NCBI RefSeq assembly: GCF_013167455.1
Contig: NZ_CP038328.1
Reading direction: 5' to 3' (one strand)
From: Escherichia coli O157:H7
Lineage (GTDB): Bacteria; Pseudomonadota; Gammaproteobacteria; Enterobacterales; Enterobacteriaceae
DNA: 64,000 bases
Part shown: in pieces, positions 15,001-21,000 of the stretch
Numbering within the stretch: the first letter of the stretch is position 1
Layout: the number at the start of each line of letters is the position of its first letter
Position numbers: made by a program

Positions 15001-18000
15001 TTCGCAGCGATTCCACACATGTACCACCACTTTTCCACGCTTTGTGGTATTCCTCTATCAGCCAGCGTTGCTCGTAATGGCTGACGATACGTCGCGCATC
15101 GGCGGCACTCGCCACTTTTTCTGATGTCAGCGGATACCAGCAGGCTCCGTCCTCTCCTGCTCCCCGCAACAGACATACGTGAGCGAGAGCGCCTGGCCGC
15201 TGTTGTCGGGATTTTTTATGCTGACTTCGCTGTAACTGATGAGCATCCGGGCCTGGCGGGCTGCCCGCCCGCCTTTTTGCATCACATTCAGCGTGTGGCT
15301 TCCCGCGGCTGACTTTATAATGCAGGTAATGCCAGATATCCGCTTCCCGGTCACAGACAGTGATTACCTGTTTCTGTATCTCCCTCAGCCGTTCGGCCAT
15401 GCGCTCCGAAGCCTGCTGCCAGCGGTAACTTTCTTTTTCTTCACAGGGACGTTCTTTTCGCTGGTGCTTAACACCGTAGGTGTCCGTGGCACGACTCCAG
15501 CACTGCTGTTCGATAAGATCGACTGGCAGGGCGCTGTCGGGGGCGTACATCAGGACAGAGTGAGCCAGCAGCCCGTGCGTCTTCGGGTTAGTGGTGGTAT
15601 TCCCCAGGTCATCAAATGCCGTACTGTGACCGAAGTTAATGGTGGTGGTATCTTCCAGCGCGAGGAGCAGCGGATGTGCCTCACATGCCCTTGCAGTGGC
15701 AGTAAATCCGGCTTCGGCAATGGCTTACGGGGACACCGACGGGTTACGTATCAGGCGGTACGCACCTTCAACCTGAGCAGTGAAGTGGGATGATTTCACA
15801 ATAGAAAGACCTGCATGCTGAGCGAGAGAAGAGGTCAGTGACACAAGGCGTCGTGTACGACGCGGATCACCGAGACGGGCATGTCCAGACTGCTCGTTAG
15901 CCAGTGAATAACAATCAGAAAGTACCATAACAGACCCGAAGAAAATGAAATATAAGAGAAGATCAACGGGTGAAGAAAAAGTTCAAAAAATCGCTGCCGG
16001 GGAGGAAGGAAACTACCGGATGGAAAGAGTCCCCCTAAAGCAGACTGACAGACATCACAAATCCCCGGGTGGGGATTTGTGTATAAGAGACAGGTTACAG
16101 GTGTGGTGAATAAGACTGCAAATGTGGCAGCTCATGCCGTGGTGAATGCTGCACTGGCGGTGGTACAGGGAAATAACGCCCGTGCCAGTGCCGCAGGTGC
16201 TGCCACTGGAGACGTGGTGGGGATGATAGCCACAGAGATGTGCGGAATATCCCCTGGCACTGTTACATGTAAAAGATAAATAACGAAGCTACATCCTTCT
16301 CTTTATGAACGGCTTTATATTAGTTTTGCTGACAAGATTGAGCTAAATCCGGCCAATGAAGAAGAGCAGGTTATTCTTTAAAGGTTTGATAACATGTAAC
16401 ACATTTTGAATATTCAGTCAGTAAGCCTTAAAAATTTACCTGGTTATGGGCTGACTGATATAACAAAGTAAATATTCGATGGGGAATGCCGGATGCAATG
16501 AACAATGCATTAACGTATCGAAATAATGATGCAGGAGCAAACTCAGTCTGGTGAGTATACATTATGCCATTGATGCAGAGTTTAAAGGAACAGGGCTGGT
16601 TCGTTATGGAACAACATTTGTGCCTGAGGAAAGGGGGGGGAGTATCTGAGGCAACAGAAGTTTGTGGGGAGTTCGGTTTATTACCATGCTTGGTTTTTTG
16701 TCAGTGTGTTCAAATCGTCAGGTGATATATTTATAGTTTTTTGATGATGATTTCAAATAATGTTTTTGAGATGTGTGGTCCTTTTTGATTTTCAGAAATC
16801 ATTTATTAATGAAGGAGGGTTAAATGAAAAAAACTCGTTATAATTTCAGTAATGATATTATATGTTATGAGTGGTTCAAGACTGGCTGATAATCATACGC
16901 TATCGGCTGGTTATGCTCAGAGTAAGGTACAGGACTTTAAGAATATTAAAGGAGTGAATCTGCAATATCGATATGAGTGGGATTCTCCGGTCAGTGTCGT
17001 CGGGAGTTTTTCGTATATGAAAGGTGATTGGGCGGACAGTCATCGCGATGAAGCTGACGATTTTTACAGACATCAGGCTGATATTAAATATTATTCATTT
17101 CTCGCAGGCCCAGCTTATCGTCTGAATGACTATATCAGTTTTTATGGTTTGGTGGGGATATCTCATACTAAAGCGAAGGGAGATTATGAGTGGAGAAACA
17201 GTGTGGGTGCTGATGAGTCTGATGGATATTTAAGTGAGTCTGTATCAAAAAAATCCACTGATTTTGCTTATGCAGCTGGTGTTATTATTAATCCGTGGGG
17301 CAATATGTCTGTAAATGTTGGGTATGAGGGAACTAAAGCAGATATATATGGAAAACATTCGGTCAATGGATTTACTGTTGGAGTTGGTTATCGTTTTTAA
17401 TCATTAGACGGGACTGGATAATTGCACTTGCGTAGTGAAGTTTACTAAATGTTTGTATTTTAATGAAGTATTCGACATATTCCCTTCAGACGGAATATGT
17501 CGACGGTTATGGTTTTACTGGAGCATGAGTATGTTATGGCGAAACTGATAAATATATCAGCGTCCACTGAGGAGAGAATGACGCCAGGGGAGAGGAGGGT
17601 GGCTTCACGACTGGAGAGCTTTCTGAATGATGATTGCTTTGTCTGGTACGATATCCCGGTGGGACGGAAAAACCGACATCCGGATTTTGTCATTATTGAC
17701 CCGGATAACGGGCTGGTATTTCTGGAGGTCAAGGACTGGACTGTATCCACATTACGTAAAGCAAATCAGGAGCAGGTTACACTGGAAACCGACGGTCTTC
17801 TGAAATCAGAAATAAATCCGCTGGTACAGGTTCGTCGTTATGCCTGTGATACGGTTAATGCCTTACCTGCTGACCCGTGCTTACGGCAGAATGACGGTCA
17901 GTATAAGGGGCGGCTGAACCTGGCCTGGGCGTATGGTGTGGTGTTTACCCGCATTACCCGTCAGCAACTGAAGGCACTGACAGGGAATAATGAGAATGCG

Positions 18001-21000
18001 GTGGAAAAGATTTTTCCTTCAGCACAGACAATCTGTCAGGATGAAATGACGCAGTCTGTTTTACCTGAGGTATTCCGGCAAAAAATTGCCGGGATGTTTA
18101 CCACGGGGTTCAGAACCCGGGTAACACCCCGGATGAGGGATATTCTGCGCGCCCATCTGTTTCCTGAAGTGACCGTGAAACAGAACTCACAAATCAAAAT
18201 TATGGATATTCAGCAGGAGATTCTGGCCAGAAATATTGGTGACGGGCATCGTGTCATTCATGGTGTGGCCGGTTCCGGAAAAACCATGATTCTTTTGTTC
18301 CGTTGCCTTTACCTGGCAGAAACCACGTCCGGTAGTTACGCCGCCCCAGTGCAACTACCCGGAGGGCGTTTTCACACAGGTTATTGTCGATCTCCACCCA
18401 GCCATTGCGGCAGTATTCGTTCAGAGCGTCCCATTGCTTCAGCAGATAGGTGAACGCTTTCGCTGTATCCGAGTGGCGCGACAGCGTGTTCATCTGCCCC
18501 TGGAGCCACTCATACAACGACTGCATTAGCGGTACCGTTCTGGCTTTTCTGACCGCCAGTCGCTCTTCTGCCGGACTGCCGCGGATCTCAGCCTCGATAG
18601 CGTACAGTTCCCCGATACGACGGAGCGCTTCTCCCGTTACTGTCGTTGGATGGCGGACATGTACATCGTGGATCTTGCGTCGGGCATGTGCCATACAAGC
18701 CGCTTCGGTTGCCTGACCGCTTTCGTAAAGAGCATTGTAACCCGCATATGCATCGGCCTGCAGGATACCTCTGTAGTCCGCCAGATGTTGCTGTGGGTGG
18801 ATGCCTTTGCGGTCGGGAGAGTATGAGAACCACACCGCTGCCGGCATGGTCGAACCGGCGTTGCGATCGTCACGAACATAGACCCACAGCCGTCCGGTAC
18901 GGGTTTTACCCTGACCCGGCTCCAGTACATTTACCGGCGTGTCATCGGCATGCACTTTACCCGGCATCAGCACATAGTGCTTCAGTTCATCATACAGCGG
19001 GCGAAGCTGCTCTCCCATGATGTCAACCCAGCGCCCCATCGTATTGCGGTGCAGCTCCACGCCCTGGCGGGCATAGATTTCCGACTGACGGTACAGCGGC
19101 AGATGCTCGGCGAACTTAGCCATGATTATGCGGGCCAGCAGAGCCGGACTGGCGTAACTGCGCTCGATGGGTTTTGGTGGCTGCGGAGCCTGAACTATAC
19201 AGTCGCACCGGCTGCAGGCCCGTTTTGGGCGAACCGTTTCGATTACCCTGAACGCGGTGTTGATGATATCCAGTTGTTCAGAGATGCTTTCTCCCAGCGG
19301 TTTCAGTTTACCGCTGCAGACGGGGCATTCGGTTTCTGCCGGGGAGATAACCTGCCTGTCACGGGGAAGTGTTGCCGGAAGTGCTTTGCGGACGGGAGAG
19401 TCTGATGTTTTCGGCGCTGTCTCTCCGGCCATTGAGGTGAGTTGCAACTGCGCCTCACCAAGCCTGTTCTGGAGCTCGGTTATACGCGTTTCTGCCCGTG
19501 CGATCTTCTTTTCTATCTTCTCGCGGCTTTTCTCGCTGCTGCGACCGAACAACATTCTCTGCAGTTTAGCGACCAGCGCTCTGAGTGAGCTGATCTCGCG
19601 GGCATAGCCGGTTATTTCACCAGACAGACGGACGATAACAGCCTGCTGTGCGATCAGCAGGGCCTTCAGTTGCTCGATGTTGTCGGGGAGTGTGTTGTTC
19701 ATTCCCCTGTTTTATCACGGGTTATATCCGGATGCCAGGCCGTTCTGTCCGTTTGGGATGTTGCCATGCGATCCCCTCCAGTAGCATGGATAACTGAGCT
19801 GGCGTCAGGTGCACTTTCCCTTCCCGGGTTACCGGCCAGACGAAGCGGCCCCGTTCCAGGCGTTTGGCGAACAGGCATAACCCGTCACGATCGGCCCACA
19901 GTATTTTCACCATTTTGCCACTGCGGCCCCGGAAGACGAAGATATGCCCGGAGAACGGGGCATCTTTCAGCGTGTTCTGCACCTTCGAAGCCAGGCCGTT
20001 GAAGCCACAACGCATATCTGTGATGCCAGCGATGATCCAGATTCTGGTACCGGTTGGCAGCGTTATCATCGGGTACCTCCTTTCATTTCGCGGATTAGCG
20101 CCCGTAACATTTCCGGAGTGAGAGGGTCAAACAGTTTTACCACACCTGATTTAAGATGCAGCTCGCACCGTGGGACGTTTCCGGGATCACTCTCAGGGCA
20201 CTCATCAGGCTTGTTACGCCAGAAGGGATTTGTAACTGGTCTGGTCGGCTCTGGCGTATCAGTCAGAGCCACCGGGACAGGCATGCATTCCTGTATGTCA
20301 TCATCGCTCAGTAAGCCGTCCTCGTACTGGCTTTTCCATTTTAACAGCAGGTTATCATTGATACCGTGCTCTCTGGCGATCCGGGCAACAACAGCACCGG
20401 GCTGTAATGCCTGTTTTACCAGCCTGATTTTAAATTCACGACTGTAGGAGGTTCGTCGTTCTTTTCGCCATGTGCCTTCGCTGATTTGAGGCTCTGTTAA
20501 TTCCTTCTTTCTGTTGGCATAAAGGATGGCGTCAAGCTGAGCTAATGAAACTGAATCGGGCAATGGCCATGCGATACCGGATGCAATAAATCGCTGAAAA
20601 AGCGTATGTATTGTGGAATGACTGAGACCTAGACGCTGAGCGATGGCCCGGATGGTCAGTTTATCTTCAAATCTTAAACGCAGAGCATCAGGCAAATAAG
20701 AACGGAAGCAGGGAATATCTTTTTTTGTCTGGGAATTCATCGTTCGTGTCCATCTATATAGATGGGCGCGATTGTTGCCAGACAGGACAATTTTCACAAG
20801 ACGTCGCAGATGGGGCGCTTACACAACAATGGCGCGAGGGAAAGCTGCTATTACCTTCTTCAGAGAGCCCCCAGCTACTTCCTGTGACTCTCGATGCAGC
20901 TGCCGAACAGCCAGAATCGCTCGCAGAGGACCCGGAAACCCTCAGTATCAGCTGTTGTCAACGACGGATGACTATTGCACCGTTCGTGACAGTGTGCTGC

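Follow-up and report, generated by a model that had tools for sequence, protein, structure and literature searches.

A truncated NERD nuclease/UvrD-like helicase gene joined to a partial IS66 element in the pheV island OI-122 of Escherichia coli O157:H7

The sequence considered here, called the window throughout, is a 64,000-nucleotide (nt) stretch of Escherichia coli O157:H7 (assembly GCF_013167455.1, contig NZ_CP038328.1), and the feature under study is the 5′ remnant of a gene for a NERD nuclease joined to a UvrD-like superfamily 1 (SF1) helicase. The remnant occupies 17536-18332 on the plus strand and comprises codons 1-265 plus 2 nt of a gene of 595 codons. Directly beyond it, on the minus strand at 18333-20822, stands an ISSfl3-like element of the IS66 family of insertion sequences (IS), whose right end is missing. 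The helicase remnant and tnpC of this element are convergent, 3′ end to 3′ end. Reference annotation already treats both pieces as pseudogenes, and the feature as such is known. The NCBI Prokaryotic Genome Annotation Pipeline (PGAP) reports a ‘NERD domain-containing protein, incomplete, missing C-terminus’ at 17536-18333, the same coordinates as those of the original prediction, and next to it an ‘IS66 family transposase, incomplete’; the Sakai reference lists the pseudogenes ECs_3849 ‘helicase’ and ECs_3848 ‘transposase’. Relative to these annotations only three things are new: where precisely the break lies, how much of the IS was lost and to which family the parent belongs.

How much of the parent gene survives? 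The open reading frame extends from 17497 to 18453 on the plus strand. Translated from the ATG at 17536 it begins MAKLINISAS...HPDFVIIDPDNGLVFLEVKDW and runs into unrelated sequence after the break. The true start is placed at 17536, the conserved start of the family, because nearly all of 56 diverse relatives, in the alignment that also served to measure conservation, share M1 and A2. In Pfam, NERD (PF08378), a PD-(D/E)xK nuclease domain, matches residues 17-109 (17584-17862, plus strand; E 8.7e-11), and the stub beyond is covered by weak P-loop/UvrD matches only. The PADLOC model PDLC01087 (‘C3a187, NERD+UvrD’) aligns remnant residues 1-264 with model positions 1-238 of 559 (E 1.3e-60), a match far beyond chance. 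The nuclease catalytic residues, recognized by their conservation in the 56 relatives, are all retained: E19, D50 (17683-17685), E64 (17725-17727) and K66 (17731-17733). The Walker A sequence GVAGSGKT, helicase motif I, is encoded by codons 243-250 at 18262-18285 on the same strand. The succession of a NERD-type domain and a Walker A motif, from which the original prediction set out, is therefore well founded. Walker A is the sole SF1 helicase motif kept in the O157 copy; Walker B and motifs III-VI are deleted, and the invariant residues D349/E350, Q381, R413, G538 and T571/R572 all lie beyond the break. The window copy is without 55% of the protein. Because Walker B and every later helicase motif are missing, the O157 product cannot be a helicase. 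At most the remnant could encode a 305-amino acid (aa) polypeptide, made up of a NERD domain and P-loop stub with a nonsense tail of 40 residues; this tail is read from antisense tnpC (18333-18453, plus strand, with a TGA stop at 18451-18453) and has no homology to the helicase family. The complete SF1 helicase core, absent from a window copy that ends at residue 265, is present in intact alleles elsewhere, and the window copy is a remnant of a NERD+UvrD family member rather than a functional member.

The junction is sharp. Against an intact allele (strain STEC17-183), identity runs up to 18332 (...ACGTCCGG) and then collapses; with respect to intact alleles in general the remnant has 95-98% nucleotide identity, which ends at exactly this position. 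IS66-family homology on the minus strand starts from 18332/18333, where the placement of one G, common to both partners, is ambiguous. The element has the tnpA-tnpB-tnpC gene set of the IS66 family, on which the PGAP and Sakai annotations agree, with tnpA at 20740-20066 (reading frame 20797-20066), tnpB at 20069-19722 and tnpC, lacking its 3′ end, at 19702-18333, all on the minus strand. It is 99% identical to a 2,705-bp copy on plasmid p13081-2 (locus L004, 2501-5205, ending ...GGTGCGCTTAC), of which the window matches L004 2501-4987. The left inverted repeat is kept at window 20822 (GTAAGCGCCCC...; GTAAGCGCCCCATCTGCGACG; repeats GTAAGCG...). Relative to the p13081-2 copy, the last 218 bp are gone, and with them the right inverted repeat and 62 codons at the end of tnpC. 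The window element is therefore an incomplete copy with only one of two terminal inverted repeats, and the Sakai repeat_region describes it as ‘ISSfl3 Family: IS66 partial’. The abrupt end of the helicase gene against an antisense tnpC without its own 3′ end, noticed at the outset, is thus fixed to the break at 18332/18333. Since both genes are cut at one junction and the right end of the IS is missing, the IS did not simply insert into the helicase gene. Instead, the junction was made by at least one deletion that began in one gene and ended in the other, with 1 nt of microhomology. A single deletion that removed the rest of the helicase gene together with the right end of the IS, as originally supposed, would be the simplest history, not a provable one.

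A direct precursor, namely an intact ISSfl3 downstream of an intact helicase gene, was sought among the strains compared and was not found. STEC17-183 was rejected in this role, as it carries a different IS66 element (ISEc8-like) in the orientation opposite to that of the ISEc8 of the window, and OkiPb01698 and UID2309220041 have no ISSfl3 downstream of the helicase gene. In the window the ISSfl3-like element is nested in tnpA of an ISEc8 copy, also of the IS66 family, that is itself internally deleted and is visible as two plus-strand fragments (20823-20955 and 20992-21654) by self-BLAST against the other ISEc8 of the window; Sakai has ‘ISEc8 partial’ here. The internally deleted ISEc8 copy adjoins the island integrase. 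The second ISEc8, with a full tnpC, is found at 2515-4053.

The breakpoint is widespread in E. coli. A 120-bp probe across the break, for which a full match was required, detects the junction in 416 of 5,426 complete E. coli genomes, O157:H7, O55:H7, O111:H8 and O45:H2 among them. The 5′ part of the helicase gene occurs in 1,033-1,048 E. coli genomes and the 3′ half in 631. As 631 and 416 add up to approximately the number of genomes with the 5′ part, the figures agree with junction genomes not keeping the 3′ half elsewhere; among the 40 matches listed for the 3′ half there is no O157 record. This distribution fits loss of the 3′ half rather than its relocation. The junction event is old enough to be common to all sampled OI-122-type islands, for which the precise breakpoint is a marker. 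The search for an intact homologue, advised when the remnant was first noticed, was rewarding: about 600 genomes, or about 11% of complete E. coli, carry the gene intact, on islands and plasmids, and it is absent from the GTDB representative of the species. Examples of intact copies are the STEC17-183 allele (WP_024199211.1) and the one in GI-pheV of EAEC 55989. One O45:H2 genome (FWSEC0003) has an extra 1-nt deletion at the equivalent of window 17561 that causes a frameshift at codon 9, which fits a sequence no longer under selection; the neighbouring pagC-like gene is frameshifted too in this genome (equivalent of window 17246). Both lesions suggest that decay is still in progress at this end of the island.

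The window contains the pheV island OI-122, alias SpLE3, of E. coli O157:H7. Positions 17400-18335 are 100% identical to many O157:H7 chromosomes, and in strains DEC4E and Sakai the same region lies within the tRNA-Phe (pheV) island together with efa1′/lifA′, nleE, nleB, espL2 and the pagC-like gene; the background to OI-122/SpLE3 as a pheV island has been described (PMC11537424). The attachment site, tRNA-Phe (pheV), is at 23194-23269 on the minus strand (ARAGORN and annotation), and the P4-type tyrosine integrase of the island is at 21731-22996, also on the minus strand (open reading frame call, PGAP and Sakai annotation). Upstream of the helicase remnant, annotations place a gene for a pagC-like Ail/Lom outer-membrane protein at 16852-17400 on the plus strand. 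This gene fills the slot held elsewhere by a T5orf172/GIY-YIG gene, and homology between the pagC-type and GIY-YIG-type contexts begins at window 17534. Further upstream, at 16295-16634 on the plus strand, is a pseudogene of tssE, which encodes a baseplate protein of the type VI secretion system (T6SS); it was found by tblastn with the TssE of Dryocola and is labelled ‘TssE, frameshifted; internal stop’ by PGAP. A short fragment at 16123-16245 has 85% identity to part of a hemagglutinin-repeat (CdiA-type) gene. In STEC17-183 and OkiPb01698 the CdiA-type gene is full length just upstream of tssE/pagC, which makes the fragment a further remnant of the ancestral arrangement. At its left end the island is not collinear with that of DEC4E (window 1-5400 against NZ_CP038398.1 842623-848021): the ISEc8 tnpC is located ~1.3 kb further along in DEC4E, and the two differ by ~1.35 kb in IS content, from which it follows that IS content at the pitB-proximal boundary varies between O157 strains. 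Ten other large open reading frames of the island (efa1 fragments, nleE, nleB, espL2, pagC, the integrase and IS-related frames) have no PADLOC match at E<=1e-3, consistent with the view that the helicase remnant is the only defence-like remnant in the island.

What was the parent gene? The intact allele encodes 595 aa, or 581 aa from the PGAP start 14 codons downstream, and in Pfam it presents NERD, AAA_19/UvrD-helicase, UvrD_C and UvrD_C_2 in this order. PADLOC C3a187 covers it from end to end (residues 1-594 against model positions 1-556 of 559; E 1.6e-140). The parent is an N-terminal NERD/PD-(D/E)xK nuclease joined in one polypeptide to a compact helicase of the UvrD/PcrA type (SF1A), and the NERD-helicase architecture anticipated from the stub is upheld by the intact alleles. 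NCBIfam matches (PcrA, Rep, UvrD, HelD and others) all fall far below their cut-offs. An exhaustive profile-free search, with proteins clustered at the 50% identity level, returned 550 clusters at E<=1e-30, and the best 150 of these 550 are mostly ~600 aa long and align end to end. In the 56 relatives, the D50 of the nuclease site never varies, and 90% of them or more share E19, E64 and K66; invariant too are G243, G246, G248, K249 and T250 of Walker A, D349 and E350 of Walker B, and Q381, R413, G538 and T571/R572. This conservation of catalytic residues across relatives shows that both enzymatic sites are under purifying selection in the family. An AlphaFold2 model built on the family alignment has a predicted local distance difference test (pLDDT) score of 91 and a predicted template modelling (pTM) score of 0.87. 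When it was searched against the PDB with Foldseek, UvrD, PcrA and Rep came first (E about 1e-17), followed by the SLFN11/SLFN14 nuclease-helicase fusions and Upf1-type helicases; on the predicted fold, SLFN11/14 and Upf1 would be distant analogues. No solved structure of the NERD+UvrD family was found, UvrD/PcrA/Rep being the closest, and PHROGs contains generic phage helicase families only and no NERD-UvrD phage family. A scan of genome contigs gave 32 loci, at 37-46% identity except for a 686-bp fragment at 67% that is counted among the 32; they come from Aliivibrio, Microbulbifer, Photobacterium, Neisseria, Wohlfahrtiimonas and sulfur-oxidising symbionts, with no Enterobacteriaceae among them.

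Intact loci were inspected for partner genes, as had been recommended, and no fixed partner was seen. In E. coli, intact copies reside in pheV-type islands among hha, inovirus Gp2-like, DUF4222, perC and ibrAB genes and many IS, and one published GI-pheV type contains ‘a putative DNA helicase’ with pic and a T6SS (PMC11537424). The undeleted O157-type arrangement is exemplified by strain OkiPb01698, in which the order is cdiA-tssE (pseudogene)-pagC-intact helicase gene-orf101-ImpA_N remnant-gene for an 893-aa AAA protein-ibrAB. The gene immediately 5′ of NERD-UvrD in 138 E. coli genomes is a GIY-YIG/T5orf172 gene for a protein of 414 aa (L006, 8565-9809 and 10045-11790). The 414-aa protein matches the PADLOC PD-Lambda-1 models at E 5e-88, over the C-terminal two thirds of the models; PD-lambda-1 is a single-gene system now named SNIPE (bioRxiv 10.1101/2025.11.03.685801). 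The same pair, 78 bp apart, occurs in Serratia marcescens (L058 7677-10824) and Kosakonia pseudosacchari (L061 7679-10818), and in S. marcescens it adjoins a type II CBASS operon (SMODS, ThiF, JAB, SAVED) between integrase genes. T5orf172 and NERD-UvrD could form a two-gene module or be two stacked single-gene systems. T5orf172 as an obligatory partner was rejected, given that only 138 of the ~600 intact E. coli copies have it and that the Dryocola, Salmonella and Klebsiella copies do without it. In enterotoxigenic E. coli (ETEC) TW10722, Qat genes are found 6 kb downstream of the NERD-UvrD gene. Among distant relatives the neighbours include an adjacent TIR gene (on a metagenomic contig), a phage-type integrase and an IS21 helper gene, and one relative is carried by a conjugative Vibrio harveyi plasmid. 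In the plasmid collection 112 Ralstonia records match; those listed are ~2-Mb replicons with the gene at similar coordinates, as in the plasmid record of Ralstonia solanacearum T78 (2.06 Mb; L054 9001-10839), which has a full-length homologue of 40% identity. The neighbours at the T78 locus are a toxin/regulator (toxin-antitoxin) pair and two very large hypothetical genes, and residence in Ralstonia is unusually stable for an otherwise patchy gene. No cas genes were seen in any neighbourhood inspected (E. coli, Kosakonia, Dryocola, Serratia, Salmonella, Klebsiella and distant relatives). With no consistent companion, the NERD-UvrD gene behaves as a self-contained accessory gene.

Two relatives outside E. 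coli point to where this end of the island came from. The gene of Dryocola clanedunensis (60% identity) is inside a T6SS cluster ordered tssM-tssA-tssF-tssG-tssJ-tssE-orf159-NERD/UvrD-ImpA_N/VasL (L009 1-11357), a locus that shows no tRNA. In Kosakonia pseudosacchari the order is tssF-tssG-tssJ-vgrG-...-tssE-orf156-T5orf172-NERD/UvrD-VasL (L061 1-12809), VasL beginning either 3 nt beyond the helicase stop or 4 nt ahead of it; 516 bp beyond VasL follow tRNA-Phe, yqgA and speC, with site and orientation as in the window. With Dryocola proteins as queries, tblastn recovered remnants of ImpA_N/VasL in E. coli IBS28, where they lie a short way 3′ of the intact gene, and PGAP likewise labels tssE and ImpA_N/VasL remnants in several E. 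coli strains. From the shared pheV site and the tssE and VasL remnants it follows that the pheV-proximal end of OI-122 would be the eroded remainder of a T6SS cluster. By gene content and order, OI-122 resembles a pheV-linked T6SS cluster that has eroded to a shell, and the helicase gene would have been one of the last two genes of that cluster.

Taken together, the feature is almost certainly a dead remnant made by deletion. The most satisfactory overall explanation, which we consider probable, joins this to a parent nuclease-helicase that acted on foreign DNA. We propose that helicase codon 266 was fused to the interior of tnpC in a downstream ISSfl3-like IS66 element by an illegitimate deletion at 1 nt of microhomology, and that this took place in an ancestor of the islands of OI-122 type. 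Codons 266-595, any sequence between the two genes and the right end of the IS would have been taken in the process. The intact parent may act alone as an ATP-driven helicase-nuclease, loading on phage or plasmid DNA that invades the cell and degrading it, by analogy with nuclease-helicase immunity of the Nhi type. Its gene would move as accessory cargo, at times paired with a SNIPE/PD-lambda-1-like GIY-YIG nuclease.

Four lines of reasoning lead to a defence role for the parent: a nuclease and a motor are fused and conserved; the distribution is patchy and mobile (islands, plasmids, integrases, IS); adjacency to validated defence genes is repeated (SNIPE-like, CBASS, Qat, TIR); and the literature flags NERD-helicases beside type III CRISPR and UG34 reverse transcriptases, which they accompany (PMC9226505). 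The label is plausible and rests on neighbourhood and on a candidate-only PADLOC model. Several points weigh against the explanation just given. No experiment in the literature searched links the family to phage or plasmid resistance, and C3a187 has only the status of a candidate; similarity to the Nhi model is negligible; the enterobacterial clade has its setting in a T6SS operon, which is no classical defence island; the Ralstonia megaplasmid copies are conserved at similar coordinates in the records listed (112 matching); several relatives lie between ordinary metabolic genes; and the extant sequences cannot tell one deletion from several events at the junction. When the remnant was first noticed, a housekeeping context of intact homologues was named as grounds for doubt; intact copies recur beside defence genes, and several relatives lie among ordinary metabolic genes. 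On balance, we put the chance that the parent is a defence gene at about even. That the family, alone or with the SNIPE-like partner, represents a still unnamed anti-phage or anti-plasmid system is a tentative proposal, to which we give slightly less than even odds.

Could the parent instead serve the upkeep of the genome? A helicase-nuclease for DNA repair, recombination or replicon maintenance (RecB/AddA- or HelD-like), with no role in immunity and with defence neighbours by coincidence, would account for a motor that in sequence and fold is best matched by UvrD, PcrA, Rep and HelD, for the relatives flanked by housekeeping genes and for the settled residence in the listed ~2-Mb Ralstonia replicons. 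Against it stand a patchy presence within one species, in about 11% of complete E. coli and on islands and plasmids, the recurrent position next to known defence genes, and scores far below the cut-offs of curated repair-helicase families. We regard this alternative as unlikely.

The T6SS context allows another alternative, in which the parent is a working part of the secretion locus rather than its cargo and what O157 retains is left over from the decay of a T6SS cluster. The protein might then process DNA, protect against incoming DNase effectors or handle DNA from killed neighbours. The position of the gene between tssE and ImpA_N/VasL of an apparently complete cluster in Kosakonia and Dryocola, its abutment on or overlap with the VasL start in Kosakonia, the location of that cluster at the window's own tRNA-Phe/yqgA/speC site and the tssE and ImpA_N/VasL remnants that flank the gene in E. 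coli islands all speak for such a role. Yet no T6SS genes occur near distant members (about 40% identity) or, within the same clade, near the copies of Salmonella, Serratia and Klebsiella; about 600 E. coli genomes keep an intact gene flanked by T6SS pseudogenes; and in the integrase-bounded Serratia island the gene and its T5orf172 partner adjoin CBASS. A parent that is a functional, co-transcribed component of a pheV-adjacent T6SS locus in several Enterobacteriaceae, between tssE and vasL, is thus very unlikely, and the defence-system version is likelier. Finally, a new job for the truncated frame as a free-standing NERD nuclease of 305-318 aa, kept by O157-type strains, is extremely improbable: the frame is open to 18453 with E19, D50, E64 and K66 in place and the identical allele is found in hundreds of genomes, but that identity reflects a recent common origin of the island and not selection, an O45:H2 genome has the frameshift at codon 9, the 40 C-terminal residues are nonsense, the pagC segment has taken the place of the upstream sequence as far as 2 nt from the ATG, and no sigma-70-like promoter was found in the 135-bp upstream spacer by a promoter/terminator scan of 16700-18700, in itself uninformative.

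What does this mean for the island and for the family? For the window itself the significance is small: the pathogenicity island has been studied intensively, and the remnant is a further IS-associated pseudogene in it. The candidate defence family has no intact gene in islands of the OI-122 type, and their pheV-proximal end provides evidence for descent from a pheV-linked T6SS cluster. The threads of interest lie with the intact family, in its putative defence role, its SNIPE-like pairing and its conserved slot in a pheV-linked T6SS locus. Being widespread and catalytically conserved, the NERD-UvrD family is a reasonable candidate for a defence screen. If, on the other hand, the parent were a T6SS component, a nuclease-helicase, often with a SNIPE-like GIY-YIG nuclease, would be linked to T6SS activity, and OI-122 of O157 would be the decayed shell of that locus.

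Comparison with known systems places the locus and its parent more closely. The IS-associated truncated genes of O157 O-islands, namely ECs_3848/ECs_3849 of OI-122/SpLE3, are the very same locus, with the same junction and the same pseudogene calls. C3a187 originates from a survey of genes near type III CRISPR-cas loci, where ‘NERD+UvrD’ was cluster 187, seen in three genomes (Shah et al. 2018, PMC6546367). The parent shares with it the order of domains, NERD and then a UvrD-like helicase, and its intact allele matches the model from end to end; the original cluster was defined by adjacency to type III cas genes, whereas the copies inspected here are without cas neighbours. Gabija GajB resembles the parent in having a UvrD-type SF1A motor, and the partial model matches reach E about 5e-20 over residues 335-522. 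In Gabija, however, the UvrD-like GajB works with the OLD/TOPRIM nuclease GajA, while the parent has a NERD/PD-(D/E)xK nuclease in cis; membership of GajB was rejected, as the matches cover part of the motor only and no gajA neighbour is annotated at the loci inspected. In a 2023 review NERD appears among the domains of ‘Nhi-like’ systems (PMC10952713), and like Nhi the parent combines a nuclease, at the N-terminus, with an SF1 helicase in a single polypeptide, for which no obligatory partner was seen. The Nhi model PDLC02372 matches at E 3.1e-5 over residues 224-254 only, ~30 residues around the P-loop, and membership was rejected on this profile score; the parent is an analogue of Nhi, not a member of its family.

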